64,000 nucleotides of DNA from Oceanispirochaeta sp. (GTDB taxonomy: Bacteria; Spirochaetota; Spirochaetia; DSM-2461), in assembly GCA_963663385.2 (NCBI GenBank), contig CAXXXD010000002.1, positions 704,001 through 768,000 of the forward strand. The letters run 5' to 3'. The position numbers and the translations under genes were made by a program. Positions 15,679 through 40,281 of the stretch are shown one piece after another; position 1 is the first letter of the stretch, and every line of letters starts with the position of its first letter. The notes under the pieces are model-generated. The model searched no databases, was not told the origin of the DNA, and saw nothing but the letters and a program-made list of their open reading frames with translations.

Positions 15679-15770
15679 TATCTGTCCTGAATCCTGAATC
15701 TCGAATATCGGGACTATCGCAGAAGTGCTCTTTGTAACTTTTGTGATAGCCCCTTTAAGGAAATATCAAA

Positions 15771-16304: not shown

Positions 16305-16319
16305 AATAAAGGATACCAA

Positions 16320-18721: not shown

Positions 18722-19875
18722 GACAGACGGCTCCTGAAGTCGCTATATCCAAAATGCTTCACCAGCTGCAGCTGTCCGCTCCCGGAATCGTAAAGGTATT
18801 GGCTCGGCAGTCCTATGCCGTTGAAAGTCGTGGTTTTTACCATGGTGTAGTGGGCCATATCGCAGAATACCACTTTATCTCCGGCTGCCAGGGGAGTATC
18901 GAAACTGTAGTCTCCTATCACGTCTCCGGCCAGACAGGTTACCCCCCCCAGACGGTAGGTTACAGCCTTTTCTCCCCCCCTGCCGGCACCGGCAATCTCC
19001 GGCCTGTAGGGCATTTCAAGCACATCGGGCATATGACAGCTGGCGGAAGTATCCAGAATAGCCAGATCACCGCGGTTCCTGTGTATGTCCAGAACCGTGG
19101 CGACAAGATAGCCCGCATTCAGGGCCCAGGCTTCTCCCGGTTCAAGATAGACCTTTACCCCGTACCGTTTACGGATTTCCAGGATGAGTTCTGTCAGTTC
19201 ATCGGTCCTGTAGCCTTCCCTTGTTATATGATGGCCTCCTCCCAGATTGATCCATTTCAAACCTTCCAGTTCATCACCGAGGCTTCTCTCCACTGCTTCC
19301 CAGGTGCGCAGGAGAGCTGAGGAGTCCTTTTCGCAAAGGTTGTGAATATGGAGACCATCCACTTTTTTCAGAAATCCCGCGGGGAGTTCCTCCCGGATGG
19401 TTCCGAGACGGGACAGAGGAGCCGAGGGGTCATAGATCGCTGTGTCGGTCTCCGAATGGGAAGGGTTGTACCGCAGTCCGAAAGAGACTCTTCCGGCATA
19501 CTCCTCCCTTTCGGATGAGAACCGCTCCCACTGGGAGGGCGAATTGAAAATCAGGTGGTCCGAATGCTGAAGCAGCTCCTTCAGACTCTCATGGCTGTAG
19601 GCGGGGCTGTAACTGTGAACTTCCAGTCCCATTTCCTCCCGTCCCAGTCTGGCTTCATGAGGAGAACTGGCGCATATGCCGGAGAGATAGGGCCTGAGAA
19701 GATCGAAGCACGAGAACATGGAGAACCCTTTCAGGGCCAGAAGAACTTCGGCACCGCTTTCCCGGCCTACCGCCTGCATGATCCGCGCATTGTTTTCCAG
19801 CAGGGCCAGGTCTACGACGAATGCAGGACTCTTAATGCCGGAAAGGTCTAATCCTTTAAGGTAATCACATTCCAT
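18718..19875 (-). CDS. nspC: Carboxy(nor)spermidine decarboxylase
   Basis: LALKGFS (PLP Lys), GLHIHNLCE, NLGGGHHIT, HMPDVLEMPYRP, CLAGD, HYTMVKTTTFNG. Confidence 0.93.
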   Translation of the reverse strand: MECDYLKGLDLSGIKSPAFVVDLALLENNARIMQAVGRESGAEVLLALKGFSMFSCFDLLRPYLSGICASSPHEARLGREEMGLEVHSYSPAYSHESLKELLQHSDHLIFNSPSQWERFSSEREEYAGRVSFGLRYNPSHSETDTAIYDPSAPLSRLGTIREELPAGFLKKVDGLHIHNLCEKDSSALLRTWEAVERSLGDELEGLKWINLGGGHHITREGYRTDELTELILEIRKRYGVKVYLEPGEAWALNAGYLVATVLDIHRNRGDLAILDTSASCHMPDVLEMPYRPEIAGAGRGGEKAVTYRLGGVTCLAGDVIGDYSFDTPLAAGDKVVFCDMAHYTMVKTTTFNGIGLPSQYLYDSGSGQLQLVKHFGYSDFRSRLS

Positions 19876-21032
19876 GGCAGTCCGTATACACCCAGGTCGT
19901 CCATAAAAGGATCGGGATCAAACTGTTCCATGTTGAAGACTCCCGTTCCTTTCCATTTCCCTTCCAGGATCATCTTGGCGCCTATCATGGCGGGTACGCC
20001 TGTGGTGTAGCTTATCGCCTGGCTTTGAACCTCCTGAAAGGACTTTTCGTGACTGCAGATGTTATATATGTATTTTTTCAGTGTTTCTCCTTCTCTTTCT
20101 CCCTTGATGATACAGCCTATGCATGTTTTTCCTTTGGTCAGGGGACCCAGACTGCCCGGATCGGGGAGGAGAGATTTGAGAAACTGGAGAGGAATAATCT
20201 CTTTGCCTTCGAAGATCACCGGATCAATCCGGGTCATTCCGACATTCTGCAGAACTTCAAGATGTTTCAGGTAGTTGTCTCCGAAGCTCATCCAGAACTG
20301 GGCCTTTTTCAGGGTCGGGAAATTCAGGGTCAGCGATTCCAGCTCTTCATGGTACATCCTGTAAATATTGTAGGTTCCCACGTTTTCGGGACATGAGAAG
20401 GACTTTTTCCGGCTCATGGCAGTGGTTTTGACAAACTCACCGTCTTCCCAGTGACGGCAGGGTGCTGTTACCTCCCGGATATTGATTTCCGGGTTGAAGT
20501 TGGTAGCGAAGGGCTGTCCGTGATCCCCTCCGTTCACATCTATAATATCCAGCTCATGGATTTCATCAAAATAATGCTTACTCAAATAGGCCGTGAATAC
20601 ATTGGTTACACCAGGGTCGAAACCGCTGCCCAGAAGGGCCATCAGGCCCTTTTCCCTGAAACGGTCCTGATACTCCCACTGCCATCTGTATTCGAATCTG
20701 GCTGTCTCCGGCGGTTCGTAGTTGGCCGTATCCAGGTAGTTTACTCCCGCATTCAGGCAGGCGTCCATTATAGACAGATCCTGATAGGGAAGGGCCACGT
20801 TTATAACAAGGTCGGGTTTGTGTTTTTTTAAAAGCGCCGTCAGCTCATCCACGTTATCCGCATCAACCTGTTCGGTTACAACGGGCATGTCAATCTGGTC
20901 GGCAATGGCGTCGCATTTGCTCTTTGTTCTGCTGGCCAGTACTATTTCACCGAATACTTCGGGAACCTGGGCGCATTTCCGGGTTACTACGGAGCCGACG
21001 CCTCCGGCGCCGATAATCATTACTTTGGACAT
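19848..21032 (-). CDS. Carboxy(nor)spermidine dehydrogenase/synthase (saccharopine dehydrogenase family)
   Basis: IGAGGVG, NVALPYQDL, YLDTANYE, GSGFDPGVTN, FATNFNPEINIRE, QAISYTTGVPA. Located between speA and nspC. Confidence 0.92.
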   Translation of the reverse strand: MSKVMIIGAGGVGSVVTRKCAQVPEVFGEIVLASRTKSKCDAIADQIDMPVVTEQVDADNVDELTALLKKHKPDLVINVALPYQDLSIMDACLNAGVNYLDTANYEPPETARFEYRWQWEYQDRFREKGLMALLGSGFDPGVTNVFTAYLSKHYFDEIHELDIIDVNGGDHGQPFATNFNPEINIREVTAPCRHWEDGEFVKTTAMSRKKSFSCPENVGTYNIYRMYHEELESLTLNFPTLKKAQFWMSFGDNYLKHLEVLQNVGMTRIDPVIFEGKEIIPLQFLKSLLPDPGSLGPLTKGKTCIGCIIKGEREGETLKKYIYNICSHEKSFQEVQSQAISYTTGVPAMIGAKMILEGKWKGTGVFNMEQFDPDPFMDDLGVYGLPWNVITLKD

Positions 21033-21034
21033 AC

Positions 21035-22963
21035 TCAATAATTCTCCCTTTCATAATAGGTATAGCCTCTGAGGCTTTTTTCAAAACATGAAACGATGTT
21101 CTGCCTTTCCCGGGGGCTTATCAGTCCTTCTTTAACAGCTCTTTCCGCTTTCCGCCGGTATTTGTCCAGCAGGTTTTTGGGATCGTACTCCACATAGCTC
21201 AGAACATCGGCAACAGAATCGCCCTCCAGCTCGCGTGTAATTTCAAATGATAAATCCTCTTTCACACGGATACTCACCACATTGGTGTCCCCGAACAGGT
21301 TGTGGAGGTCTCCCAGGGTTTCCTGATAGGCTCCAACCAGGAAAAATCCCAGGTAATAATCCTCGTCGGTTTCGATTTCATGTACAGGCAGGGTCTTTTC
21401 AAGTTCTTTCAAACTGATGAATTTGTTGATCTGACCATCGCAGTCGCAGGTAATATCCGCCAGTATCGCCCGTCTGGTGGGAGCTTCGGAAAGACGGGAA
21501 AGGGGCATGACCGGGAATATCTGATCGATAGCCCACACATCGGGGAGCGACTGAAACAGGCTGAAGTTGGCGTAGTAGATATCCGCCAGGTTCTCATCGA
21601 TATTTTCCAGTCCCGGCGGGAGTTTCTTCATCCTGTTCATCTGTCCCTGGATGCGGTGGATGATAGTGAGATAGATATTCTCGCACAGTGAACGCTGCCG
21701 CAGTGTGACCTGACCGTATTTGAACAGCTGATGCATCTGGTCCCGGTAGAACAGGGCATCATTGAAACATTCCTGAAGGTTCTTGCTGTTCATGTCAGTC
21801 AGAATCGCCATCATATTATGGATCAGTTCAGGAGAATCCTCCGGAAGAGTCTCTGGAAGCGGGGTGGCTTCGAAACTGGTCACGTCAAGTATGTTTACCA
21901 GGAGAACCGAGTAGTAAGCGACAGTCGCCCTGCCCGACTCGGACATCAGAATAGGATGGGGGATCTCTTCCTCGGTGAACACCGACATGAGAACTTCCAC
22001 AATATCGTTTGCATACTCGTCCAGGGTATAGTTGCGGCTGTGCATGTAATTAGTCTGTGAGCCGTCATAGTCCACAGCCAGTCCGCCTCCCAGATCAAAG
22101 TACCCCATGGTTGCCCCTTCGGCTATAAGGCCTCCGTACAGGCGCGCCGCCTCCAGAATGGACTGTCTGATGTCCCGGATATTCGGTACCTGCGAACCCA
22201 GATGGAAATGCAGAAGCTTCAGGTAGGACAGTTTTCCCTGTTCTTTCAGCTGGTCAACAATCTGGATAATCTGGGTGCTTGTCAGACCGAAAAGGCTTCG
22301 GTCTCCTCCGGATTCGCTCCAGTGTCCTCCCGCCCGGGCGGATACTTTGAATCTCACTCCAAGAAGAGGGGCTACCTGAAGAGCTTCGGCCCGCCGAAGG
22401 ATTAAATTCAGTTCTCCGGGCATTTCGAGAACCAGGAAAACCTTGTATCCCATTCGAGTCGCCTGCAGCGCCAGGTCGACGAACTCTTCATCCTTGTAGC
22501 CATTGCAGACAAGGCAGGACTCCCTGTCTTCCATAATTGCCAGCGCGGCTATTAACTCCGCCTTGCTTCCCGCTTCCAGCCCATGGTGATAACGGGCGCC
22601 GAAACGGGTAATTTCCTGGAGAACCTGCTCCTGCTGGTTGACCTTGATAGGGAAAATCCCTCTGTATTCGTTCTGATATTTCTGTTCTTTGATCGCTTTT
22701 CTGAATGATTCATTCAGAAGGGTTATCCGTGAATCCAGAAAGTTCTCTATTCGCAGAAGGACAGGAAGATTCATTCCCCGTTCTGTAATCCCCGAAATTA
22801 TTTCCTTGAATGGTATTGTGATTTTCGTACCATTCACAGTTGTCTTAATACATAATTCCCCTTCGTCATTGATCCCGTAATAACCGTCACCCCATTCGTG
22901 GATACCGTAAAGGTCAGAAGATTTATGCCGATTCCAGCTATTCCAGACGTCTTTTCCTGTCAA
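21035..22963 (-). CDS. speA: Biosynthetic arginine decarboxylase
   Basis: FPIKVNQ, GLEAGSKAEL, HFHLGSQ, DLGGGLAVDYDG, NFSLFQSLPDVWAIDQ, DITCDCDG, GAYQETLGDLHNLFGD. Confidence 0.96.
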   Translation of the reverse strand: MTGKDVWNSWNRHKSSDLYGIHEWGDGYYGINDEGELCIKTTVNGTKITIPFKEIISGITERGMNLPVLLRIENFLDSRITLLNESFRKAIKEQKYQNEYRGIFPIKVNQQEQVLQEITRFGARYHHGLEAGSKAELIAALAIMEDRESCLVCNGYKDEEFVDLALQATRMGYKVFLVLEMPGELNLILRRAEALQVAPLLGVRFKVSARAGGHWSESGGDRSLFGLTSTQIIQIVDQLKEQGKLSYLKLLHFHLGSQVPNIRDIRQSILEAARLYGGLIAEGATMGYFDLGGGLAVDYDGSQTNYMHSRNYTLDEYANDIVEVLMSVFTEEEIPHPILMSESGRATVAYYSVLLVNILDVTSFEATPLPETLPEDSPELIHNMMAILTDMNSKNLQECFNDALFYRDQMHQLFKYGQVTLRQRSLCENIYLTIIHRIQGQMNRMKKLPPGLENIDENLADIYYANFSLFQSLPDVWAIDQIFPVMPLSRLSEAPTRRAILADITCDCDGQINKFISLKELEKTLPVHEIETDEDYYLGFFLVGAYQETLGDLHNLFGDTNVVSIRVKEDLSFEITRELEGDSVADVLSYVEYDPKNLLDKYRRKAERAVKEGLISPRERQNIVSCFEKSLRGYTYYERENY

Positions 22964-24377: not shown

Positions 24378-25304
24378 TCAGTTTGCTCCTGTATGAACCT
24401 TCAATCCTGCCAACCGGCCTATCTCAGCCCATTCTTCGCATACTGATTCATCCAGATTGGGAACAGATCCCATGGCATATTCCATTCCCAGTCCTTCATA
24501 TTTGCCAAGTCCCAAACGGTGAAAGGCAAGGAGCTCCACTTGCTGTGCCGCCGTCTGCTCCTTGATGAACCGGAACATAGCCGAAATATCTTCCCTGCTG
24601 CTGTTTACATCAGGGATAACTGGTATCCGAATGATCAGATTTTTATGGTGTCGGGAAAGCCACTTTAAATTTTCCTGTATCTGTTCAGGGTAAACCCCGA
24701 TATTGGCATAATGCCTGTCCCGATCAATATGTTTAAGGTCAAAATAAATAAGATCTATCAGTTCTGAAACCGATTTCAATACAGAAAGGGAGACCAATCC
24801 TGCTGTTTCTAAAGTTGTATGAATCCCTTCTTCCCGGCACATCCGGGCCAGTTCCATAATAAAATCACTCTGAAGCAGCGGTTCCCCTCCGGAAAATGTA
24901 ACCCCGCCCCCTGAATTCCGGTAGAAAGAGTTGTCCCGGCGGATCTGTATCATTACTTCTTCTGCAGAGAGGGCGTTACCGATCAACCGTCTGGCATCAG
25001 AAAAGCAGACCTCTGAGCATTTCCCGCAGGCAGTACATTTATTATGATCAGTAATCAGGCCGAATACCGGATCTTCAGATATAGCTTTTTGAGGGCATAT
25101 TTCCAGGCAGCGGCTGCAGCCAATGCATTTGTTGCGAAAGTACATGATTTGAGGGGCTGTTTTCTGTGACTCGGGATTTTGACACCACAGGCAGCGAAGA
25201 TTGCAACCTTTAAAAAAAATAACGGTTCGGATTCCCGGGCCGTCTTTGGTGGCATAGCGTTCTATATCAAATATGGTTGCTTTATTTACTGTTTTTGCGG
25301 ACAT
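24378..25304 (-). CDS. Glycyl-radical enzyme activating protein (radical SAM with ferredoxin-like insert)
   Basis: DGPGIRTVIFFKGCNLRCLWCQNPE (CxxxCxxC), two CxxCxxCxxxC motifs, GGVTFSGGEP, FHRLGLGKY. Confidence 0.95.
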   Translation of the reverse strand: MSAKTVNKATIFDIERYATKDGPGIRTVIFFKGCNLRCLWCQNPESQKTAPQIMYFRNKCIGCSRCLEICPQKAISEDPVFGLITDHNKCTACGKCSEVCFSDARRLIGNALSAEEVMIQIRRDNSFYRNSGGGVTFSGGEPLLQSDFIMELARMCREEGIHTTLETAGLVSLSVLKSVSELIDLIYFDLKHIDRDRHYANIGVYPEQIQENLKWLSRHHKNLIIRIPVIPDVNSSREDISAMFRFIKEQTAAQQVELLAFHRLGLGKYEGLGMEYAMGSVPNLDESVCEEWAEIGRLAGLKVHTGAN

Positions 25305-26302
25305 TTGATGCAGGTCTCTCCAATCTTCAGTTTAGTCGGAATAATCACGCGTTCCGGATCTGTATGCGTCTCCGTGTTGTTTAATTTGTTAAGCATGATC
25401 TCGAAGGACTTCTCGCAAAGTTCATCAAGATTCTGTTGGACAGCTGTGAGCTCTGATGAAAAGCGGCTGTATAAGGGGATGTCGTCGAAACCTACGAGTG
25501 AAATGTCTCCAGGAATGGAAATCCCCATGGTTTTTGCCTTTGTAAGGACTCCGAATGCCATCTGATCATTTGCGCAGAATATGGCCGTCGGCCAGTTGGG
25601 GAGGCTTAAGAAATATTCAAAAGCGGCAATACCGGATTCAAAGCGTAAATTCCCCTGGTATAGAAAGTCCTGATTCAGGGGAATTCCGTATTTTTCCAAT
25701 GTGTCTTTATATCCCCTGTAACGATCCTCTGCAGAAGTCCATCCTTGAGGACCGCCAATAAAACCGATTTTTCTGTGCTGTAGCTGGATTAAATATTCGG
25801 TGGCCTGGCACCCCCCCCGGTAGTTATCACTAGTCACTTCCGAGATAATCCCTTTCTTGAAATGGCGGTCTATCATTACTGTCTGGGTTGACTTTGAAGC
25901 TCTTTCTATGGTTGCAGCCGATATCCCTTCTGTAAAAATAATGCCCCCTATTTTATTTTCAAGAAGGTAATCCAGATATACCTGTTCTTTCTCTGTATTA
26001 TTTTCTGTATCGCAAACAGTAAGGGGAATGCGCTGCTCCATGGCTTTGTGTCCGATTTTACGGACAATCTGGGCAAAAAACGGATTCAGGATATCAAATA
26101 CAAACAGGGCAAGACCCCATTGGGATTTTGAACTCAACCGTGAGGCGAACGGATTTGGTTTATATCCAACCTCGTCCATCTTATTGAGGATCTGAAGGCG
26201 TAACGGTTCTGCTACCAGTTCCGGATGATTCAGTACTCTGGATACAGTCGTGGGAGAGGTATTGCAGATTTCTGCTATCTTCTTGATGTTATATTTACTC
26301 AT
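25286..26302 (-). CDS. LacI family transcriptional regulator
   Basis: NIKKIAEICNTSPTTVSRVLN HTH, YKPN, NPFF, DNYRGG, FCANDQMAFG, SLVGFDDI. Confidence 0.95.
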   Translation of the reverse strand: MSKYNIKKIAEICNTSPTTVSRVLNHPELVAEPLRLQILNKMDEVGYKPNPFASRLSSKSQWGLALFVFDILNPFFAQIVRKIGHKAMEQRIPLTVCDTENNTEKEQVYLDYLLENKIGGIIFTEGISAATIERASKSTQTVMIDRHFKKGIISEVTSDNYRGGCQATEYLIQLQHRKIGFIGGPQGWTSAEDRYRGYKDTLEKYGIPLNQDFLYQGNLRFESGIAAFEYFLSLPNWPTAIFCANDQMAFGVLTKAKTMGISIPGDISLVGFDDIPLYSRFSSELTAVQQNLDELCEKSFEIMLNKLNNTETHTDPERVIIPTKLKIGETCIKCPQKQ

Positions 26303-26306
26303 TGTT

Positions 26307-26358
26307 ATGAAACCCTTTTCATTTGTAAAATCTTACAATCAGAATTCCGAATTGTCAA
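26307..26358 (-). promoter_or_regulatory. lacI-activase promoter and LacI-type operator
   Basis: Minus strand: TTGACA (26358-26353), N17, TAAGAT (26335-26330), then ATGAAAAGGGTTTCAT (26322-26307). Confidence 0.65.
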
Positions 26359-26425
26359 TATTGTAGAAATCTGAAATATAGTAGGAATTTATGGGTTATT
26401 CTTCATTTGAACTCATAAAATTAAT

Positions 26426-26482
26426 TTGTCAAGTAAAATAATCCATGGTAGAATCAAATTAAATGAATGAAAACGGTTTCAT
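26426..26482 (+). promoter_or_regulatory. GRE promoter and LacI-type operator
   Basis: TTGTCA-N17-TAGAAT with extended -10 TG, then ATGAAAACGGTTTCAT (26467-26482), one mismatch from the operator at 26307. Confidence 0.7.
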
Positions 26483-26497
26483 AAAACGGAGGTTAAA

Positions 26498-28918
26498 ATG
26501 ACTGAACGAATTCAAAAACTTAGAAACGGTCTGTTTGAGAGTATTCCGGCCATATGTCCGGAACGTGCAGTTCTGTTCACCGAATCCATGAAAAAAACAG
26601 AAGGACAGCCGATTGTCAAAAGACGGGCAGAAGCTTTCTATCAGGTCCTTGATCATATGACCATATTTGTCCGGGATGGAGAACTCCTTGTGGGAAATCA
26701 AGCCAGTTCTGTTCATGCCGCACCGGTCTTCCCTGAATACTCTACCGACTGGATTGTAAGTGAATTTAATGGCATGCCGTATCATTTCTCTGAACGTCCC
26801 TGCGACCAATTCTCCTGGACGGAGGAAGCAAAAGATCAAATACTGAATACGATTGCCTACTGGGAGGATAAATCCCTGATCCGGTTAGTTTGGAGTCAAC
26901 TGCCGGAATCAGCAAAAAAGGCCTGGGAAATTAATGCCATAGATGATACCTGGTGTGCTGCCGCAGGGCTTGGTAATATTCTGCCGGATCATGAAATGGT
27001 TTTAAAGGAAGGGTTGAACGGCGTTATTGCCAGAGCGCAGACCCGGCTGGACAGCCTTGATTTAACAGAACCCGATGCCATAAAACAACAATGGTTTCTT
27101 CAGGCTGTTGTCAAGAGTAATGAGGCCGTTCTCCGCTTCGCTGCCCGATTTGCCGATGAACTCGACCGGCTGGCGTCTGAAGAAACAGATACCAGCCGCA
27201 GAGAGGAACTTAAGGTCATGGCTGATAACTGCCGCCGTGTACCTGGCGAACCGGCAGAGACATTCTGGCAGGCTATACAAACAGTCTGGTTTATACAGCT
27301 TGTCCTTCAGATAGAGACTAACGGGCATGCCATCTCTTTAGGCCGATTTGACCAATACCTCTGGCCTTATCTGGAAGCTGATCTGAAATCCGGTATTCTT
27401 TCTGAAGAATTTGCCCTGGAACTGATTGAATCTTTTTTTGTAAAGGCGAATGAAATCAATAAATTGAGATCCTGGCCGGATAGTGAGTTTTTTCCAGGTT
27501 ATCATCTGGCCGAGAACCTGGCTATCGGGGGACAGACAAAGGATGGTTTGGATGCGGTAAATAAACTGAGCGAACTTGTTCTGAAGTCAACGGCGGAGAT
27601 GGGTTTGACAAAACCGTCGGTTTCTGTGAAATGGTTTGAGGGAACAGGGGACAGATTTATGCATCAAGCCCTGGAGACAATTCAGACTCATCAGGGAGGG
27701 CAGCCTGCTCTTTATAATGATATCTGTGTTATGAATATCCTGCGGAATATGGGAATCCATGAGGAGGATCTGTATAACTGGGCTCCGGTGGGATGTATTG
27801 AATCTTCCATCCCCGGAAAATGGGATTTTGCCGCTAAGGGCTCCTGGCTGAATCTTGGTAAAATATTTGAAATTACTATAAATAACGGTATCGATCCGGC
27901 CACAGGGGTACAGCTTCTGCCGGGAGATGGTACGCTTGAAACCTTTTCAAGCGCGGATGACATTTTGAAGGCCTATAAAAAACAGTTGTATTTTTACATG
28001 CAGCAGCAGGTTATTGTTGAGCATATTAGCGATGAGATGCACATTCTTCATGATCAGAATGCCTTCCGTTCTTCTCTGGTACATGACTGTATTAAAAGGG
28101 GAAAGTCCCTGATTGAGGGCGGAGCTGTATATACCGCCGACGGCGGACCTACAGCTGGCGCCATGACTGTGGGAGATTCCATCGCAGCCATCGACTGGGC
28201 TGTTTTCGATAAAAAACTGTTTACAGCCGAGCAGCTGGTTCATGCCTTAAAAACAAATTTTGAAGACCAGAGTACATCCCCAACGGGTAATGAGATCCGG
28301 TTGACTCTTATAAACAAGGTTCCGAAATTTGGAAATGATGATGACTACGCGGATAGGTGGACTGTTGCTATCGATGATTTTCTGGGGGAAACCTATTTTA
28401 CCAAATTTAAAAGCTCCCGATATGGAAAGGGGCCTGTTCCTGCTACGTTTGCCTTAAGTCAGAGCTCTGTTACCGGAAATATCGCTTTTGGTAAATCCGT
28501 GGGTGCCCTGCCAAACGGGCGTAAAGCCGGAACTGCAACAAATAACGGAGTTTCTCCCTCTAATGGAATGGAGCAGAATGGCCCAACTGCGTTAATCAAT
28601 TCAGAAGCCAAACTCCCCAGCAAATGGTTCCAGAAAGGATCTCTGTTTAATATGCGTTTATCTGCCGACAGTCTGCTGACAGAAGCGGGCCGGGACCGAA
28701 TTCTGGCTTTGGTGAAAACTCACTTCCTTAACAATCAGTACCATGTACAGTTTAATGTCGTTGATGATGAGACCTTAATTGATGCACAGGAGCATCCCGA
28801 GGAATACAGAGACCTGATGGTTAGAATTGCCGGTTACAGTGCTTTCTTTACTCCATTGAATAAAGAACTGCAGGACGATGTCATAGAAAGGATGCGATTT
28901 GAAGTGAATAAGAGTTGA
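26498..28918 (+). CDS. Glycyl radical enzyme (PFL-like superfamily, eliminase/isomerase type, substrate unknown)
   Basis: Gly loop LMVRIAGYSAFF (G779), single-Cys loop VGCIES (C433, E435), SLGRFDQYL, VPKFGNDDDYAD, HVQFNVVD. Adjacent activase. Confidence 0.93.
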   Translation: MTERIQKLRNGLFESIPAICPERAVLFTESMKKTEGQPIVKRRAEAFYQVLDHMTIFVRDGELLVGNQASSVHAAPVFPEYSTDWIVSEFNGMPYHFSERPCDQFSWTEEAKDQILNTIAYWEDKSLIRLVWSQLPESAKKAWEINAIDDTWCAAAGLGNILPDHEMVLKEGLNGVIARAQTRLDSLDLTEPDAIKQQWFLQAVVKSNEAVLRFAARFADELDRLASEETDTSRREELKVMADNCRRVPGEPAETFWQAIQTVWFIQLVLQIETNGHAISLGRFDQYLWPYLEADLKSGILSEEFALELIESFFVKANEINKLRSWPDSEFFPGYHLAENLAIGGQTKDGLDAVNKLSELVLKSTAEMGLTKPSVSVKWFEGTGDRFMHQALETIQTHQGGQPALYNDICVMNILRNMGIHEEDLYNWAPVGCIESSIPGKWDFAAKGSWLNLGKIFEITINNGIDPATGVQLLPGDGTLETFSSADDILKAYKKQLYFYMQQQVIVEHISDEMHILHDQNAFRSSLVHDCIKRGKSLIEGGAVYTADGGPTAGAMTVGDSIAAIDWAVFDKKLFTAEQLVHALKTNFEDQSTSPTGNEIRLTLINKVPKFGNDDDYADRWTVAIDDFLGETYFTKFKSSRYGKGPVPATFALSQSSVTGNIAFGKSVGALPNGRKAGTATNNGVSPSNGMEQNGPTALINSEAKLPSKWFQKGSLFNMRLSADSLLTEAGRDRILALVKTHFLNNQYHVQFNVVDDETLIDAQEHPEEYRDLMVRIAGYSAFFTPLNKELQDDVIERMRFEVNKS

Positions 28919-28989: not shown

Positions 28990-29754
28990 TCAGACAATGT
29001 AAAACTCAAGATTCATTTTTCTGATGATATCTACCTCTTCTTCAGAAATATTCGAATCAGTGATGGCGATGTCAAAATCCTCAAGATTTGAAAAATAGTT
29101 TGTATAGACTTCGCCGAATTTGGTTGAATCGGAGATGATAATCTTGGTCTGGCTTGATGCTATGGCCAACTGTTTTGTTTTGCACTCAAAAGGATTGGAA
29201 CAGGTTATTCCCAACTCGGTACTGATCCCCTTGGCTGTTATAAATGCTTTATTGGCACGGTTATGACGTAAAAGTTCCAATCCTTCTGAGCTTTCAAATA
29301 CCATGGAACTCGAATGGTAGTATCCTCCAGCGAGAATCAGTTTGCAATTTGGTTTTTTACTGATTTCACTTGCAATGTTCAGAGCAAAGCAAATAACTGT
29401 CAGAGGAATATCTGCGGGTATGAAGGAGGCAAGTATTTCACCGGTTGATCCGGCATCTATAAAAATTATGTCATTAGGTTCAATCAGGGATACCGCTTTT
29501 TTAGCGATTCTTCTTTTTTCCTGAATCATTGATATCCTGGCATTGTTCATGGAATAAACGTTTTCCTGCTTACTTTCCAGGAACATCACACCGCCATGGA
29601 TGATTTTTATCGGTTCCGATTTTGCCAGCAGTTCCAAGTCCCGTCTTATTGTCATATGGGACACAGAGAAAGCCTTCGCCAGTTCTAATATGGTCGCAGA
29701 CATATTGCTTTGTAAGTATTTGAGTATTAATTCTTTACGTTCACTACTATTCAT
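28990..29754 (-). CDS. DeoR/GlpR family regulator (copy 1)
   Basis: VSHMTIRRDL HTH, IFIDAGST, DSTKFG. Confidence 0.93.
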   Translation of the reverse strand: MNSSERKELILKYLQSNMSATILELAKAFSVSHMTIRRDLELLAKSEPIKIIHGGVMFLESKQENVYSMNNARISMIQEKRRIAKKAVSLIEPNDIIFIDAGSTGEILASFIPADIPLTVICFALNIASEISKKPNCKLILAGGYYHSSSMVFESSEGLELLRHNRANKAFITAKGISTELGITCSNPFECKTKQLAIASSQTKIIISDSTKFGEVYTNYFSNLEDFDIAITDSNISEEEVDIIRKMNLEFYIV

Positions 29755-29859
29755 ATCATATATTATACCTGAAAATGTTAAAAATATAAGATATTTTTTT
29801 ATAATGTAAATAATATCATAATATATGATTGATTATGTGAAAAAATGTGAATTAATTAT

Positions 29860-29915
29860 TTGACAGGATTAGCAAAGTGTTGTTAAAATAACATTAGATG
29901 TTAAATAAATAACAT
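29860..29915 (+). promoter_or_regulatory. Promoter with TGTTA..TAACA palindromes (putative DeoR operators)
   Basis: TTGACA at 29860, TGTTA-aaa-TAACA at 29881-29893, ATGTTA-N6-TAACAT at 29898-29915. Confidence 0.55.
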
Positions 29916-29940
29916 AAATATTTCAAATCAGGAAGGATAG

Positions 29941-30603
29941 ATGAATAATCTGGAAATAAAAATACCTTATTTAAGAAAAGTCGTTGACGGCGGTATGGAG
30001 ATGGTTAACAGGGGGTTGACCGTTGGGACATGGGGAAATATCAGTGTGCGTGACCCCGAGACAAATCTCTTTTACATTAAGCCCAGCGGAATGGTCTACA
30101 GCGAAATTACTCTGGAAGATGTCGTTGTAATGAACAGTGAGAAAGAAATCGTTTGGGGCCATCGAAAACCTTCAATCGAGTTTGATATGCACATCTCCAT
30201 TATGAATAAACGTGAAGATGTGAACTGTGTAATTCATACACATCCTATCTATTCCAGCGCCTTTGCGGTTGCCATTGAAGAGCTCCCTGGAGTCAGTGAA
30301 GATTTTGTACAGATCGTGGGTGACAAGGTTATCTGCTGTGATTATTCTCTTCCCGGTTCTCCTGAGCTGGCTGTCAATGTTGTTAAAGGTCTTGGTGAAA
30401 GAAATGCAGTTCTGATCCCCAATCATGGTACTGTATGTGTAGGAGTCGATGTCCCCAGTGCTCTGAAAATTTGTCATGTGGTTGAGAAAAATGCTCAGGT
30501 CTATATCCTGGCGAAAACTATAGGTACTCCTCAGGTGATTTCTGATGAGGATATTAAGGCTATGCAGTATTTTGCCAAAAATCTTTATGGACAGGGTAAA
30601 TAA
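29941..30603 (+). CDS. Class II aldolase, L-fuculose-1-phosphate aldolase-like (copy 1)
   Basis: GTWGNIS, KPSG, PSIE..MH (catalytic Glu), IHTHP and NHG Zn ligands. Confidence 0.85.
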   Translation: MNNLEIKIPYLRKVVDGGMEMVNRGLTVGTWGNISVRDPETNLFYIKPSGMVYSEITLEDVVVMNSEKEIVWGHRKPSIEFDMHISIMNKREDVNCVIHTHPIYSSAFAVAIEELPGVSEDFVQIVGDKVICCDYSLPGSPELAVNVVKGLGERNAVLIPNHGTVCVGVDVPSALKICHVVEKNAQVYILAKTIGTPQVISDEDIKAMQYFAKNLYGQGK

Positions 30604-30651
30604 CTAGACAATGTAAAAAAGTGAAAAAGTAATTAAGGAGGATTGTTATTT

Positions 30652-31599
30652 ATGCATTCGATTGAAAAAAATAGAATAATAGCTGTTCTTGAGAGGAACG
30701 GCATTTATATCGGATTTCTTCTGATCTTTATTCTGTTTTCTTTTTCAAGTCCCTATTTCTTTGATCTGAATAACATTAAAAACATTGTGGTTCAGTCATC
30801 TATTGTGGCCATTATCGCCATCGGTATGACAATGGTCATCCTGACAGGAGGAATAGAACTCAGTGTCGGTTCGGTTGTTGCTCTGTCATCCATGGTTTCG
30901 GCTATCTTTATAAGTAAAATGGGGCTTTCTGTAGGCGTCAGTGTTATTATCGGTATTCTGGTCGGTGCGCTGGCAGGGCTGACGAACGGTTTCATCATTA
31001 GTTATGGAAATGTTCCCGCCTTTATCACGACCCTGGGTATAATGGGATTTGCACGGGGGCTGGCTCTTTTTCTGACCGGAGGAAGACCTATCGCCGAGTT
31101 GCCTTTGAGCTATGAGGCTCTTGCCAGTTCAAGTCTTCTGGGAATCCCCGTTTTTATCGTCTATACCGTAATAGCCTACGGCTTGGCCTGGGTTTATCTG
31201 AACCTTTGTAAGGGCGGCCGATACATCTATGCCATCGGCGGTAACCGGGATTCGGCCCGACTTTCGGGAATCAACGTGAAGTTCCACGAAACCATGGCTT
31301 ATGTATTCTGCGGTCTTGCATCGGGTATCGGCGGAGTTCTGCTAACCGCCCGTCTTAACTATGCTACTCCTACAGCCGGTTCCGGCTTTGAGATGGACGC
31401 TATTGCGGCAGCCGTTATCGGAGGAACAAGTCTTGCCGGCGGTCAGGGAAATATCCTGGGAACTCTTCTGGGTGCAATCCTTATCGGGATGCTGAAGAAC
31501 GGCCTTACCCTGATGAATGTTTCTTCCTATCTGCAGCAGATGATTATCGGAGTTGTTATCGTATTAGCCGTATTCTTTGACAGATTTAAATCAAAATAA
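30652..31599 (+). CDS. Sugar ABC transporter permease (RbsC-like)
   Basis: GGIELSVGS, VPAFITTLG, GRYIYAIGGN, EMDAIAAAVIGGTSL. Confidence 0.93.
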   Translation: MHSIEKNRIIAVLERNGIYIGFLLIFILFSFSSPYFFDLNNIKNIVVQSSIVAIIAIGMTMVILTGGIELSVGSVVALSSMVSAIFISKMGLSVGVSVIIGILVGALAGLTNGFIISYGNVPAFITTLGIMGFARGLALFLTGGRPIAELPLSYEALASSSLLGIPVFIVYTVIAYGLAWVYLNLCKGGRYIYAIGGNRDSARLSGINVKFHETMAYVFCGLASGIGGVLLTARLNYATPTAGSGFEMDAIAAAVIGGTSLAGGQGNILGTLLGAILIGMLKNGLTLMNVSSYLQQMIIGVVIVLAVFFDRFKSK

Positions 31600-31643
31600 A
31601 TATCTACCTGGGGTAGGTGTTTAAAATATTAAAGGAGTCTTTT

Positions 31644-32609
31644 ATGAAAAAGTCAGTATTGTTTGTGTTGATTCTCTTGATGGCCGCTTCTTTCTCGTTT
31701 GCCAATGGGCAGCAGGCTGGATCGGATGAAAAGGTAATTGGTTTTATCCCCATGACCATGAATAATGAGTATTTTATTACCATGGTTAACGCAGCTGAAA
31801 AGGAGGCTGCAAAGCTGGGAGCTTCCTTGAGCGTTCAGGCCGGAGATTCGCACAGTTCTGCAGATGCACAGCTTATGATTATTGAGAATATGATTCAGCG
31901 TCATGTAGATGCCATCTGTATCGTTCCCAGCTCTTCAAGTTCCGTTATTGTTGCCTTGAAGAAAGCTGAAGCTGCCGGTATCCCCGTCATAAATATCGAT
32001 ACAAGAATCAATGAAGAGATGGTCAAGAACGCCGGTCTCAAGCCCGTACCCTTTATCGGAACTGATAACTACAGCGGTGCGGCTATGGGGGCCGACTATG
32101 CCATGAAGAATCTAGGAATCGAAGGTTCCAAGGTTGCTATCCTGACAGGAATCAGCGGTCAGCAGAATGCAGCCGACAGAAGAAACGGATTTGTAGATAA
32201 TGTTAAAGGTATCGATATCGTTGCCGAGCAGACCGCTAACTGGGAAGTAGAGCAGGGATATAATGTTCTTCAGAACATTCTGCAGGCCAATCCCGATATC
32301 ACTTTTGTATCCTGTGGTAACGACGGAATGGCCCTTGGTGCAGCCCAGGCTGTTAAAGAAGCCGGAAAGGCCGATTCTGTTAAGGTTTTCGGATTTGATG
32401 CTGTTTCCGCAGCTCTCGATGCCATTGAAGAGGGTGCTCTGGTAGGTACTGTAGCCCAGTTTCCTGCTGAAATGGGAATCCTCGGTGTACAGACCGCTAT
32501 GAAGCTAATCGCCGGCGAGTCTGTTGAGATGACTACCTACACAAAAACGGAAGTTATCGATAAGAGCAACGTTGCCGAGTTCAAAGATTATCTGAAACAG
32601 TTCAATTAA
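31644..32609 (+). CDS. Sugar ABC transporter substrate-binding protein (RbsB/AlsB-like)
   Basis: Signal peptide, NNEYF, FIGTDN, DRRNGF, QTANW, NDGMALG, GFD, AQFP. Confidence 0.9.
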   Translation: MKKSVLFVLILLMAASFSFANGQQAGSDEKVIGFIPMTMNNEYFITMVNAAEKEAAKLGASLSVQAGDSHSSADAQLMIIENMIQRHVDAICIVPSSSSSVIVALKKAEAAGIPVINIDTRINEEMVKNAGLKPVPFIGTDNYSGAAMGADYAMKNLGIEGSKVAILTGISGQQNAADRRNGFVDNVKGIDIVAEQTANWEVEQGYNVLQNILQANPDITFVSCGNDGMALGAAQAVKEAGKADSVKVFGFDAVSAALDAIEEGALVGTVAQFPAEMGILGVQTAMKLIAGESVEMTTYTKTEVIDKSNVAEFKDYLKQFN

Positions 32610-32620
32610 AAAACAATAAA

Positions 32621-32650
32621 GGGAGGTTTTATCTTAGGATAAAACCTCTT
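32621..32650 (+). terminator. Intra-operon stem-loop after the binding-protein gene
   Basis: gaggttttatc...gataaaacctc. Confidence 0.5.
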
Positions 32651-32677
32651 TATCAAAACAATAATAAAGGAAAGATC

Positions 32678-34180
32678 ATGACTTTACTGGAAATGAGCAG
32701 CATCTCAAAAGAATTTCCCGGGGTAAAAGCCCTTGAAAATGTTGATTTTTCGATCGAAAAAGGGGAAGTGAGAATCCTTATTGGCGAGAATGGTGCTGGA
32801 AAGTCAACGCTGATGAAAATCCTTGCAGGTGTTTACAAACCCGATAAGGGTTCGATCATTGTCGATGGAGAGGATGTTCTTGAAGAGAACTATACTCCCC
32901 GAAAGGCAATCGAAACCGGTGTCGCTACTATCTATCAGGAACTCAATTTAAATAACTATACAAGTATCTACGAGAATATCTTTTCAGGTAAGGAACTTAC
33001 CAGGAATAGACTATTCATAAATAAGAGTGAAGAAATCAAGAAGTGCAAAACGCTGCTTCAAAAAGTCGGACTTGATATTTCTCCCATGGAGAAAGTCGGA
33101 AACCTGAGCATCGCACAGATGCAGATGATTGAAATTGCAAAAGCCCTTGCGTTTAACGCCAAGATAATTATATTTGATGAACCTACATCCTCGTTGACCG
33201 AAACTGAAACCAGAACCCTGTTCAAGATTATCAATGAACTGAAAGAAAACGGAATCGGTATTGTCTATATATCCCATCGTCTGGAAGAGCTGTTTGAAAT
33301 AGGGGATTCCTGTACGGTTCTCCGCGACGGTACTCTGATAGATACAAAGCCTGTGGCTGAGCTGACCGTTGAGACACTTATACAGATGATGGTGGGCCGA
33401 TGTGTGGACTCTGATGATGTTCATAGCAGCCACTTCAGCAATGAAGTCGTTCTGGAGATTAAAAACCTGTCCTGGGACGAGAAGCTCCACGATATCAGTT
33501 TTCAGTTGAGGAAAGGGGAGTGTCTTGCCTTCTCCGGCCTTGTCGGTTCGGGCAGGACGGAACTGGCTAAATGTATTATCGGGGAATATAAGCGTGACTC
33601 CGGTGAAATCATAATGAATGGCAAGACTCTTAATAATAAATCTGTTCAGGAATCGGTAAAGAACAAGATCGTTTACCTCAGCGAGGACAGAAAAAAAGAC
33701 GGACTTTTCCTGAAACACTCTGTTTGTAGGAACATAAGCATCTCTTCGCTGGACAGGCTGATCAAGGGCGGTCTGATCTCTTTAAAGAAGGAGAAGGAAA
33801 CCGCTTTAAAATCTATCAAAGAACTAACTGTCAAAACACCGAACAGCAAGGTAAACGCCGAGACTCTCAGCGGAGGTAATCAGCAAAAAGTTATCATAGC
33901 CAAATGGCTGTTAACCGATGGCGAGGTCTATATTTTTGACGAGCCCACCAGAGGAATTGATGTGGGTGCAAAATTTGAAATCTATAATGTAATGGAAGAA
34001 CTACTTCAAAACGGCGCCTCAATTATCATGATATCATCAGATATGCCGGAGGTATTGAATATGTCCGACCGTGTCCTTGTCATGCGGGAGGGATATTGCG
34101 AGGCTATTCTTGAGAACAACGGATTATGTCAGGAAGATATATTTCACTATGCAATAGGAGCAAACAAGTACAATGGATAA
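32678..34180 (+). CDS. Sugar ABC transporter ATP-binding protein (RbsA-like, two NBDs)
   Basis: GENGAGKSTL, DEPTSSL, LSGGNQQK, DEPTRGIDVG. Confidence 0.95.
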   Translation: MTLLEMSSISKEFPGVKALENVDFSIEKGEVRILIGENGAGKSTLMKILAGVYKPDKGSIIVDGEDVLEENYTPRKAIETGVATIYQELNLNNYTSIYENIFSGKELTRNRLFINKSEEIKKCKTLLQKVGLDISPMEKVGNLSIAQMQMIEIAKALAFNAKIIIFDEPTSSLTETETRTLFKIINELKENGIGIVYISHRLEELFEIGDSCTVLRDGTLIDTKPVAELTVETLIQMMVGRCVDSDDVHSSHFSNEVVLEIKNLSWDEKLHDISFQLRKGECLAFSGLVGSGRTELAKCIIGEYKRDSGEIIMNGKTLNNKSVQESVKNKIVYLSEDRKKDGLFLKHSVCRNISISSLDRLIKGGLISLKKEKETALKSIKELTVKTPNSKVNAETLSGGNQQKVIIAKWLLTDGEVYIFDEPTRGIDVGAKFEIYNVMEELLQNGASIIMISSDMPEVLNMSDRVLVMREGYCEAILENNGLCQEDIFHYAIGANKYNG

Positions 34181-35579
34181 CAAAAAAACGTATCATGTTG
34201 CCTTCGACTGCGGAAATTCATCCTTTCGTGTCCTCCTCGGTACATTTGAAAACGATAATCTGGTAGTTGATGTTATCGATCAGATCTCCAATGATCCCAT
34301 CAGAGTCAATGAGTACCTCTACTGGGATATCCTTAGAATCTTCGACGGGTTAAAGAAAGGATTGAAAAAAGCCTACGATAAAGTCGGCCGTATTGATACT
34401 GTAGGTATTACAACATGGGGTATCGACTTCGGAATCTTCTCAGAAAATGATCTCCTTATGAGCAATCCGCTCTGCTATCGAAATACTCTTGGTGTTGATT
34501 CATTTAATAACCATTCAGAAGAACAAAAGCATGAAAACTGGGATAATACGGGTATCCAGAATCATCCTATGAACTCACTCTATCAGATGGAAGGTATTCG
34601 AAAAAATATGCCGGAGGTATGGGATCAGGCCGACTCCATTCTGTTTATTCCTGATTTGCTGAACTATCTTTTTACAGGCAATAAATCAACTGAACGGACA
34701 ATCGCCAGTACCTCCCAGCTTTTTGATGTCAGAGAAAATGCCTATTCAGAGAAAATGCTTGAAAAGTACAATCTGTCAGCAGATTTACTCCCCAAGATAA
34801 TGGATCATGGTGAGCCCGTCGGCCTGCTGAAAGAAGAAATTTGCACCGAGCTGAATATTCCGGATCGCATACCATTTATCTGTACTCCCAGTCACGATAC
34901 GGCTTCAGCAGTGGTTGCAGTTCCCGGACCTGAAAATCAGTTGTTTCTAAGCTCCGGTACCTGGTCTCTTATTGGGGTAGAGTTGGATAGTCCTGTAATC
35001 ACTGAAGAATCATATAAAAGTGGTTTTACTAATGAAGCCGGGGCTTTTAATTCGATTACGTACTTAAAAAATGCAACCGGCTTATACTTGCTGCAGCAGA
35101 TCAAGAAGAATCTGGAAAAAAAATCCTATAATCTCAGTTGGGAAGATATGATGAATCTTGCTTTCGAGAATGAAGGCGAAGCCGTGGTTTATGATACAAA
35201 CGCGGAAATACTTTTCAGCGCAGATGATGTTGTGGGAGAAATCAGCAAGTTAATTGACTCGTCAAAACCGGAAGTTATCTTATCCAGTACCTATAAATCT
35301 CTTGCAGAATGTTACAGAGTCAATATTGAAAAGATATTCAATGTTACAGGGAAAAAGTTGTCTACCTTGTATATTATAGGGGGAGGCAGCCGGGACCGTT
35401 ATTTAAGCCAGCTGACGGCAAATGCAACTGGATTAAAAGTAATAGCAGGCCCGATTGAAGCTGCTTCCATCGGTAATATATGTATACAGAAGTGCTTCAC
35501 CAATAAGGACTGGACCATGGAAAAAATAAGGACTGTTGTCAAAAACTCCTTTGAATTGACCGAATATAAACCGTTATAA
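34173..35579 (+). CDS. FGGY carbohydrate kinase, rhamnulokinase-like (copy 1)
   Basis: AFDCGNSS, TWGIDFG, IPDLLNY, SHDTASAV, SSGTWSLIG, FTNE, GGGS, AGPIEA..IGN. Confidence 0.9.
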   Translation: MDNKKTYHVAFDCGNSSFRVLLGTFENDNLVVDVIDQISNDPIRVNEYLYWDILRIFDGLKKGLKKAYDKVGRIDTVGITTWGIDFGIFSENDLLMSNPLCYRNTLGVDSFNNHSEEQKHENWDNTGIQNHPMNSLYQMEGIRKNMPEVWDQADSILFIPDLLNYLFTGNKSTERTIASTSQLFDVRENAYSEKMLEKYNLSADLLPKIMDHGEPVGLLKEEICTELNIPDRIPFICTPSHDTASAVVAVPGPENQLFLSSGTWSLIGVELDSPVITEESYKSGFTNEAGAFNSITYLKNATGLYLLQQIKKNLEKKSYNLSWEDMMNLAFENEGEAVVYDTNAEILFSADDVVGEISKLIDSSKPEVILSSTYKSLAECYRVNIEKIFNVTGKKLSTLYIIGGGSRDRYLSQLTANATGLKVIAGPIEAASIGNICIQKCFTNKDWTMEKIRTVVKNSFELTEYKPL

Positions 35580-36805: not shown

Positions 36806-36877
36806 ATGATCCTCACTTTTTTAATGTCATTAGGATACTGTTATTTCCCGTTCGTCCGCAATATCTGAAAAATAAAT

Positions 36878-36936
36878 TTGACAGGAAATATCAGCAATGT
36901 TACCATAGTAACACATAAATGATATTAAAGTAACAT
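36878..36936 (+). promoter_or_regulatory. Promoter with TGTTA..TAACA palindromes (putative DeoR operators)
   Basis: TTGACA at 36878, TGTTAC-cata-GTAACA at 36898-36913, ATGATA-N6-TAACAT at 36919-36936. Confidence 0.55.
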
Positions 36937-36954
36937 TGTTTAGGAGATGATAAT

Positions 36955-37611: not shown

Positions 37612-37681
37612 ACTGTATTTTATTTTCGATCCCCGGATCGGGAATTTAATGATATTATTATAAAGAAGGAGAGTTGTAGAG

Positions 37682-38680: not shown

Positions 38681-38708
38681 TAGTTACTGATATTTAATAA
38701 AAAAAATA

Positions 38709-40271: not shown

Positions 40272-40281
40272 GGGTAATTGT

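Follow-up and report, generated by a model that had tools for sequence, protein, structure and literature searches.

The 64,000-nucleotide window analyzed here, from a genome of Oceanispirochaeta sp., carries a gene for a glycyl radical enzyme (GRE) which, judged by its sequence, is neither a pyruvate formate-lyase (PFL) nor a canonical diol dehydratase and matches no characterized GRE. It is a member of the known GRE superfamily and, within it, of a distinct and widespread clade with a conserved pathway context. The reading that we favor, and to which we give an even chance, is that the enzyme performs radical C-O cleavage on a neutral, unphosphorylated cyclic sugar in the pathway slot of an isomerase, with Lys447 as a new proton donor or hydrogen-bond partner. 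Its gene stands opposite two others:

26498-28918, forward strand: GRE gene, 806 amino acids; G779, C433-I-E435, and the clade-specific residues N160, A445, K447 and N683
24378-25304, reverse strand: GRE activase, 308 amino acids; radical S-adenosylmethionine (SAM) domain with a ferredoxin-like insert; TIGR02494, 355.7 bits against a cut-off of 174
25286-26302, reverse strand: LacI-family regulator, 338 amino acids; LacI helix-turn-helix (PF00356) and Peripla_BP_3 (PF13377)

The regulator and activase genes overlap by 19 nt, both divergent from the GRE gene, and are thus probably carried on one transcript. All 806 GRE codons can be translated with no internal stop, and a script check placed each of the motifs: RIAGYS from residue 776 (giving G779), GCIES from 432 (C433 and E435), GLGN from 157 (N160), NGHAIS from 275 (H277 and A278), and FAAKGSWLN from 444 (K447). 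The Cys loop, G-C-I-E-S, has a single Cys, the Cys-Cys pair being absent. An earlier reading made from the sequence alone had described an 806-residue GRE with G779 and a single-Cys loop (C433/E435), accompanied by its own activase and a LacI regulator; the script confirmed the former, and the family matches listed above bear out the latter. Pfam models for PFL-like (PF02901, 603 bits) and Gly_radical (PF01228, 101 bits) both match, and the features of the superfamily are all present: a C-terminal Gly motif, the Cys loop, a ten-stranded barrel fold and a dedicated activase. The CxE motif by which GRE 1,2-eliminases and isomerases are defined (PMC13450708) is found as C433-I-E435, invariant in all 121 members of the clade described below. 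An AlphaFold model built from a 57-sequence alignment has a predicted local distance difference test (pLDDT) score of 90.5 and a predicted template modeling (pTM) score of 0.92; in Foldseek comparisons it superposes on solved glycerol and propanediol dehydratases, YbiW, HplG and CutC with TM scores of 0.93-0.96 throughout, so that the fold does not separate dehydratases from isomerases. As the Gly loop and the Cys loop are both intact and an activase of its own is encoded beside it, the gene is predicted to encode a functional GRE. An inverted repeat followed by a T run is visible by eye 3' of its stop codon, with a loop beyond the limit of the terminator scan, which was silent there.

Comparisons with characterized families all fall short. 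Among NCBIfam models only a generic subfamily model, TIGR01774, passes (682.7 bits against a cut-off of 678.2), while equivalog scores lie at about half of their cut-offs: HpfG (NF048009) 535 of 1000, HpsG (NF048011) 518 of 1000, HypD (NF043068) 503 of 1100, CutC (TIGR04394) 485 of 1050, PflD 486 of 1109, and indoleacetate decarboxylase 400 of 1100. The PFL model, TIGR01255, gives 152 bits against 994, which together with the single Cys upholds the earlier statement that this is not PFL; by these tests the protein does not belong to PFL, CutC, HypD or HpsG/HpfG/IslA. Against all PDB sequences the best matches, at 521-553 bits, are 9rco (1,2-propanediol dehydratase), 6xs4, the Roseburia propanediol dehydratase, glycerol dehydratase and YbiW, the last at only 521 bits, as compared with 1862 bits for the self-match in a separate search; the closest solved structures, which are also the top Foldseek matches, are 35-38% identical. 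An exhaustive search of 1.84 billion 50%-representatives gave the clade's own representative at 946 bits (51%) and the next at 681 bits (41%). When the 61 nearest of 150 representatives were scanned with NCBIfam at E at or below 1e-270, 59 had no match, one matched TIGR01774 only and one CutC. Neither the tree, the PDB nor the NCBIfam comparisons showed clustering at high identity with a characterized GRE, in agreement with the proposal, made from the sequence alone, of an uncharacterized CxE-type enzyme. Literature searches found no paper characterizing this clade or its operon; a 2026 superfamily review (PMC13450708) lists the characterized eliminases and isomerases and states that entire GRE clades are still unannotated.

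A word-indexed search returned 1156 proteins at E at or below 1e-50 among 7999 scored, and the best 120 listed, 57-86% identical to the query, were aligned with it to give 121 sequences; the clade comprises at least 121 protein clusters. K447, N160, C433, E435 and G779 are each present in 121/121. Members come from at least three phylum-level groups, including spirochetes, metagenome-assembled genomes labeled Thermotogae, and Bacillota, among them the gut species Enterocloster bolteae: one locus (L144) encodes a GRE with the same sequence as a protein that bears the name Enterocloster / E. bolteae and falls into a cluster with 1165 member sequences. Two subclades can be told apart by co-varying residues, subclade A (90/121, including the query) with H277/A446/W450/S654/G660/F664, and subclade B (31/121) with I277/C446/R450/C654/A660/M664.

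For the tree (FastTree, LG+gamma, 780 columns), 156 sequences were aligned: the query, 12 clade members, full-length representatives, YbiW and PflD of E. coli (NC_000913), and four other GREs of the same genome. Lys occupies column 447 in 14 of the 156, exactly the clade, and in none of the 142 outgroup GREs. The clade is monophyletic (support 1.0, stem 0.52 substitutions per site) and nested in a 40-leaf clade, also with support 1.0, that has YbiW inside it, and PflD and the representatives with a dehydratase signature (His160, Ser278, Asp447) outside; its immediate sister is the group containing E. coli YbiW, at a weak 0.65. The leaves being best matches to the query, sampling is biased towards its neighbors, and the dehydratase-like leaves are recognized by residue signature only, CutC being the one name obtained among the 61 scanned representatives.

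The substrate pocket appears to have been rebuilt. A phmmer alignment to glycerol dehydratase (1r8w) pairs H164 with N160, H281 with H277, S282 with A278, D447 with K447 and Y640 with S654; four of these pairings had already been made by hand against the Clostridium butyricum enzyme, but the fifth, Y640 with S656, is displaced, since counting along the alignment leads to S654 (Ser in 90/121 clade members, Cys in 31/121). S282, D447 and Y640 of glycerol dehydratase are residues that we take to bind the diol, so that the further claim, that the CxE base is kept and most diol-binding residues are replaced, holds. Clade-specific columns, defined by a residue kept in 97% or more of the clade and found in fewer than 10% of the 142 outgroup sequences, include N160 (His in 105/142 of the outgroup); N683, within an otherwise conserved (A/S)-D-G-V-S-P motif (Asp in 107 and Glu in 23 of 142); the hairpin W442-D443-F444-A445-x-K447; and H398, R524 and W710. 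Column 445 is Arg in 11/11 members of the YbiW group and Ala in the clade. In the AlphaFold model K447 occupies a turn that joins two short strands, residues 442-445 and 450-452. It aligns both with D447 of glycerol dehydratase and with the residue of CutC that follows the catalytic Cys by 17 positions (Tyr506, as numbered in D. alaskensis), both presumably pocket residues.

What might these replacements mean? Since K447 and N160 are invariant in 121/121 clade members, they are no quirk of one sequence. The co-occurrence of His to Asn, Asp/Glu to Asn and a new Lys suggests that acid/base machinery has been exchanged: in glycerol dehydratase, His164 is the general acid that protonates the leaving hydroxyl (PMC13450708). 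As K447 co-varies with loss of this His (N160) and of the Asp/Glu (N683), a catalytic or hydrogen-bonding role for it would be just as probable as anion binding. The step taken in the sequence-only reading, from an Asp-to-Lys charge reversal to an anionic substrate, is thus not backed; the Arg445 of the YbiW group is Ala here, and the kinases and aldolases described next fit phosphorylation at a later stage.

Gene neighborhoods place the enzyme, with support from sequence context, in carbohydrate catabolism. Eighteen orthologous loci from species genomes and 80 from metagenomes were reduced by ORF calling and clustering to 71 non-redundant loci including the window, and neighbor clusters were named by Pfam and NCBIfam scans of representatives. 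In L142 and L141/L145 the unit reads LacI, then GRE, activase, kinase, ATP-binding cassette (ABC) ATPase, permease, binding protein and aldolase; L114 and L133 have the same eight gene types in other orders, and in L093 the kinase of the set is xylulokinase-like. These contiguous non-spirochete units (L114, L133, L142, L141/L145, L093) all lack an isomerase gene, and genes for lactaldehyde reductase, aldehyde dehydrogenase or microcompartment shell proteins are not found in the conserved unit. RbsD/FucU pyranase-mutarotase genes stand beside the GRE gene in L012, L094 and L125. Counted over those loci that had 4 kb or more of flanking sequence on at least one side (33 of subclade A, 16 of subclade B), genes within 8 kb of the GRE gene were distributed as follows:

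LacI/binding-protein cluster: subclade A 23/33, subclade B 5/16
Activase: subclade A 16/33, subclade B 11/16 (27/49 together)
Class II aldolase: subclade A 16/33, subclade B 0/16
ABC ATPase: subclade A 16/33, subclade B 4/16
DeoR: subclade A 12/33, not found in subclade B
Rhamnulokinase-like kinase: subclade A 10/33, subclade B 0/16
Xylulokinase-like kinase: subclade A 7/33, subclade B 5/16
DHDPS-type aldolase: not found in subclade A, subclade B 7/16
2-Hydroxyacid dehydrogenase: not found in subclade A, subclade B 7/16
Aldehyde:ferredoxin oxidoreductase (AFOR): not found in subclade A, subclade B 6/16
Eda: not found in subclade A, subclade B 5/16
Zn-dependent alcohol dehydrogenase (Zn-ADH): not found in subclade A, subclade B 4/16
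Aldo-keto reductase (AKR): not found in subclade A, subclade B 4/16
DeoC: not found in subclade A, subclade B 2/16

The window has a split layout, the GRE gene lying beside a separate DeoR-controlled operon (28990-35579) and a paralog of it (36029-43773):

28990-29754, reverse strand: DeoR-family regulator, divergent from the first aldolase/ABC/kinase operon
29941-30603, forward strand: class II FucA-like Zn aldolase, 220 amino acids; 47-51% identical to the aldolases of the L144 and L114 GRE operons
30643-34180, forward strand: ABC sugar importer of the first operon; permease 30643-31599, ribose/allose-type binding protein 31617-32609, ATPase 32678-34180
34173-35579, forward strand: rhamnulokinase-like FGGY kinase, 468 amino acids; TIGR02627 325 bits, below the cut-off of 528
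36029-43773: second, paralogous unit; DeoR 36029-36805 (reverse strand), aldolase 36955-37611, LsrB/RhaS-type binding protein 37682-38680, ATPase 38775-40271, two permeases 40255-42275, rhamnulokinase-like kinase 42295-43773

The window's aldolases are 47-53% and its kinases 38-54% identical to those borne on GRE operons of other phyla, and both lie below every equivalog cut-off (kinases 325-360 bits against 528, aldolases 175-179 against 264). The aldolases keep the three Zn histidines, N29, the FucA-type Glu (in 7/7; the epimerase AraD has Asp at this position) and the phosphate-site residues. In the PDB, the binding proteins encoded by the first window operon and by its Enterocloster counterpart match ribose/allose-binding proteins best, and the one encoded by the second window operon matches LsrB/RhaS-like proteins; the searches indicate families, with no specific ligand. 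Examination of close homologs thus yielded a conserved GRE-activase-kinase-ABC-aldolase unit, and the carbohydrate context with kinase and aldolase, first suggested by the window alone, recurs as a single operon in other phyla. In the window itself the link to the neighboring operons is looser: these have their own DeoR regulators and, in a scan of the window, no copy of the LacI-type palindrome in front of them.

That palindrome is the likely basis of control of the GRE gene:

26468-26481: putative LacI operator, TGAAAACGGTTTCA, a 14-bp palindrome without mismatch whose end is 16 nt short of the GRE start codon
26308-26321: second, operator-like palindrome (one mismatch) immediately 5' of the lacI start, which may serve autoregulation
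24765-24778: third, perfect copy, within the activase coding sequence and about 1.7 kb from the GRE operator

The activase-internal copy could be an auxiliary operator for looping. With up to one mismatch allowed, the window has four copies of the 14-bp palindrome TGAAANCGNTTTCA, as compared with 0.33 expected (none of 100 shuffles reached four), and three of the four copies are within the lacI-activase-GRE locus. A TG(A/T)AANCGNTT(A/T)CA palindrome is found within 120 nt upstream of the GRE gene in 26/26 spirochete-type loci (at least 69% identity) and in 3/30 other loci; for this survey GRE starts were corrected by a conserved N-terminal motif and enough upstream sequence was required, with 15 truncated or undetermined loci set aside. 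A promoter-like site at 26426-26454 precedes the 26468-26481 palindrome and the GRE start, and as such sites are not enriched over shuffles (14 against 12.2), it is only consistent with the operator placement. As predicted from these features, a LacI-family repressor with a CG-centered palindromic operator near its target promoter is present; the divergently encoded LacI would repress the spirochete GRE gene through the palindrome ending 16 nt before its start codon. LacI control as such had been supposed in the sequence-only reading, and the operator conserved in 26/26 spirochete-type loci backs it.

YbiW and PflD of E. coli (PDB 8ID7, 8ID0, 8YJO) offer the most direct comparison. They are C-O lyases of 1,5-anhydroglucitol-6-phosphate and 1,5-anhydromannitol-6-phosphate, the GRE isomerases of "anhydroglycolysis": the thiyl radical takes H from C2, the C2 hydroxyl loses its proton to the CxE Glu, and the ring C1-O bond breaks before H is given back to C1 (PMC13450708). 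The query resembles YbiW in fold (TM 0.96 to 8id7, 35% identity) and in sharing its superclade; with YbiW and PflD it also shares the CxE Cys loop followed by K-W at +8/+9, and a scheme of sugar uptake, GRE and aldolase without an isomerase, and its two subclades with co-varying pocket residues are reminiscent of the YbiW/PflD epimer pair. It differs from YbiW in the active site, with N160/H277/A278/A445/K447 for the H/H/S/R445/T447 of YbiW and Asn for Asp/Glu at 683, and so does not carry the YbiW signature; and whereas YbiW and PflD work with a phosphotransferase system (PTS) and FsaA/FsaB, it is accompanied by an ABC importer, a class II aldolase and a rhamnulokinase-like kinase of the FGGY family. 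These partners (rhamnulokinase-like kinase, FucA-like Zn aldolase, monosaccharide ABC importer) resemble instead the fucose and rhamnose pathways and the D-ribose route via ribulose 1-phosphate (NF053831), except that where the fucose and rhamnose pathways have an isomerase, here there are a GRE and its activase.

The GRE would be the hallmark of an anaerobic pathway, and the reaction we propose, with its substrate class, order of steps, regiochemistry and role for Lys447, would run as follows. A ribose/allose-type ABC system would import a neutral, monosaccharide-like nutrient in ring form. The GRE, activated by its own radical-SAM activase, would use a Cys433 thiyl radical to take H from the carbinol carbon C2; Glu435 would deprotonate the C2 hydroxyl, the adjacent C1-O bond (to the ring oxygen) would break, and return of H would leave an open-chain 2-keto sugar, with Lys447 in the new role of donating a proton to, or hydrogen-bonding with, the leaving or anomeric oxygen. 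The rhamnulokinase-like kinase would then phosphorylate the 2-keto sugar and the FucA-like class II aldolase split it to dihydroxyacetone phosphate (DHAP) and a small aldehyde, the GRE having taken the slot usual for an aldose-ketose isomerase. By analogy, YbiW-type steps on a sugar still bearing O1 would give an ordinary 2-ketose, and this is the only β-elimination scheme that we found to feed a C1 kinase and a FucA-like DHAP aldolase, which is what led to C-O cleavage on an O1-bearing ring sugar. Such a scheme would account for the lack of an isomerase, for the presence of mutarotase genes, for binding proteins of the pyranose type and for the loss of Arg445. A rhamnulokinase-like kinase paired with a FucA-like aldolase that has the Glu and phosphate site is more in keeping with phosphorylation following the GRE step than preceding it.

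Several points weigh against this proposal. Its main weakness is that ordinary isomerases exist for most aldoses, and the reason for using a radical enzyme is left unexplained. Were the substrate a 1,5-anhydro-alditol, as for YbiW, a 1-deoxy-ketose would result, and neither a C1 kinase nor a DHAP-type aldolase would be expected to take it. A position of K447 in the pocket is suggested by its alignment to D447 of glycerol dehydratase and to the CutC residue, and the sister relation to the YbiW group is itself weakly supported, at 0.65. The aldolase is found in just 16/33 subclade A loci (many of the contigs being short), the spirochete aldolase and kinase genes form separate DeoR-controlled units without the LacI operator, and spirochete loci also have a FucI-like isomerase, a split transketolase and a xylulokinase-like kinase nearby. 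As subclade B has different neighbors (AFOR, DHDPS-type aldolase, 2-hydroxyacid dehydrogenase, Eda, DeoC, AKR), the chemistry shared by the clade may not be isomerase replacement. Finally, the PflD-like paralog with its ABC importer and ROK kinase shows that layouts with the kinase before the GRE occur in this genome.

Another possibility, which we consider unlikely, is that proposed in the sequence-only reading: the substrate is an anionic sugar derivative (a phosphate, an acid or a sulfosugar fragment), with K447 as counter-charge; the kinase would act first, and the GRE would then open or dehydrate the phosphorylated sugar, in the manner of YbiW and PflD with 1,5-anhydrohexitol 6-phosphates. 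In its favor, the invariant K447 stands in place of an acidic or neutral residue, the nearest characterized branch, the YbiW group, acts on sugar 6-phosphates (PMC13450708), and the PflD-like GRE and its kinase are a precedent in the same genome. Subclade B, moreover, adds a cationic R450 (31/121) and sugar-acid-type neighbors (DHDPS aldolase in 7/16, Eda in 5/16, 2-hydroxyacid dehydrogenase in 7/16, AFOR in 6/16). Against it, the Arg445 of the YbiW group (11/11) is Ala in the clade. In IslA the sulfonate is held by Arg189, Gln193 and Arg678 (PMC13450708); the query has Asn at column 160, where nine of the 142 outgroup sequences, probably including sulfonate lyases, have Arg, and HpsG and HpfG scores are far below cut-off (518 and 535 against 1000). 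Opening of an omega-phosphorylated anhydro-sugar would also yield a 1-deoxy-ketose phosphate, whereas the Glu and phosphate site of the partner aldolase are of the FucA type, as expected for an enzyme of ketose 1-phosphates, and its companion kinase resembles rhamnulokinase.

A third model, in our view quite improbable, would place the GRE after the aldolase rather than before it, as a divergent relative of the propanediol and glycerol dehydratases that acts on lactaldehyde, glycolaldehyde or glyceraldehyde (possibly as the hydrate) or on the reduced diol. FucA-like aldolases do release such aldehydes, aldolases of several kinds are common to the neighborhoods of both subclades, and the best matches in structure and in sequence include these dehydratases (TM 0.93-0.95, 35-38% identity). 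Glycerol dehydratase (1R8W) and propanediol dehydratase (Roseburia 5I2A/5I2G; 9RCO) share with the query the fold, the length, the Gly loop, and a C433-x-E435 with the same numbering; unlike them, it has His164 replaced by Asn, S282 by Ala, D447 by Lys and Y640 by Ser, changes at the residues that define the diol pocket. Its clade also stands apart from the dehydratase-signature representatives in the tree; no diol-pathway or microcompartment genes are nearby; lactaldehyde reductase, aldehyde dehydrogenase and shell genes are all absent from the conserved unit; and the predicted control is through a LacI-type sugar repressor.

That the gene is an ordinary member of a characterized family (PFL, CutC, HypD, HpsG/HpfG, IslA, YbiW, PflD) or a decayed, non-functional paralog we regard as highly improbable: TIGR01774 is just exceeded and the genome has four further GRE genes, but every equivalog model falls short by about half, the ORF is intact with its catalytic Gly, Cys and Glu invariant in 121/121 relatives, it has its own activase and a conserved operator, and the YbiW-type and PflD-type signatures sit on two other genes of the same genome.

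Three other candidates were tried and set aside. For a link to sulfoquinovose or 2,3-dihydroxypropane-1-sulfonate (DHPS) the corresponding models fail, and the conserved unit has neither an isomerase nor a sulfoquinovosidase; a microcompartment-type diol pathway would need shell genes, which are absent; and opening of a 3,6-anhydro- or 2,5-anhydro-sugar to feed a DHAP-type aldolase would give, on paper, 3-deoxy or 1-deoxy ketoses.

With the query, five GRE genes are found in this genome of 5.3 Mb on 4 contigs; two of the others lie at C2:445584-447968 (L150/L157) and C4:734497-736794 (L151/L158). One of these two has the exact active-site signature of E. coli YbiW, and the other is PflD-like, with genes for an ABC sugar importer, a ROK kinase and an activase of its own beside it. 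Because these signatures are on other genes, the query is not this organism's YbiW or PflD. The two together suggest a PTS-free form of "anhydroglycolysis" in a spirochete.

Whatever its reaction, the clade is a good target: it is large, has members in three or more phylum-level groups and in abundance in a gut genus common in humans, and is easily recognized by the signature GLGN ... GCIE-x5-KWDFA-x-KG ... NNGVSP. Its pocket exchanges the family's usual acid residues for lysine, and the conserved eight-gene unit names an importer, a regulator, a kinase and an aldolase usable for finding the substrate. Solving it would reveal a new reaction type or a new nutrient for anaerobic carbohydrate metabolism, and would test how far YbiW-type ring-opening chemistry reaches. 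The boldest version, possible but on balance doubtful, is that this is the first radical aldose-to-ketose isomerase, or another undescribed radical C-O lyase acting on a neutral ring-form sugar, in which Lys replaces the His-Asp/Glu acid system, in a new anaerobic sugar pathway. If true, that pathway (ABC importer, GRE, C1 kinase, class II aldolase) would operate both in marine and sediment spirochetes and in the common human gut bacterium Enterocloster bolteae.

Some further features of the GRE loci can be recorded. Those of subclade B (L015-L017, L100, L101, L107, L109, L113, L121, L122, L124, L126, L131) show two contexts. One has AFOR, DHDPS-type aldolase, 2-hydroxyacid dehydrogenase, (HAD), Eda, GRE, activase and a C_GCAxxG_C_C protein; as no conventional sugar-acid dehydratase was seen in this context, the GRE may fill that step. 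The other has an ABC importer, Zn-ADH, xylulokinase-like kinase, DeoC, AKR, GRE and activase. Among spirochete loci, the lacI-activase transcript in L009, L012, L014, L074, L077, L088 and L090 often runs on into DUF4037 and DUF4125 genes and then an ABC importer with a DUF2291 lipoprotein; these DUF genes, seemingly tied to the GRE system, are absent from the window. In L002, L004, L014, L076, L098 and L136 (also spirochete) the FucI-like isomerase, the transketolase split into N and C halves, and the xylulokinase-like kinase recur beside the GRE gene, and would appear to form a second sugar module; the isomerase matches the sulfoquinovose isomerase model weakly (101 bits against a cut-off of 700).

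Elsewhere in the window, a polyamine operon on the reverse strand (17855-22963; arginine decarboxylase, a carboxynorspermidine synthase-like enzyme, carboxynorspermidine decarboxylase and agmatinase) has a G+C content of 0.49-0.55, above that of its flanks. Directly upstream of it, on the forward strand (14641-17609), is a tripartite ATP-independent periplasmic (TRAP) transporter with a DctP-type binding protein, a small subunit and a DctM large permease. On the other side of the sugar operons (43777-47559, reverse strand), an sCache_3_2 sensor kinase of the SpoOB-type family and a response regulator stand beside a 2HCT-family 2-hydroxycarboxylate transporter, and the unit looks like one for citrate/malate-type sensing and uptake.

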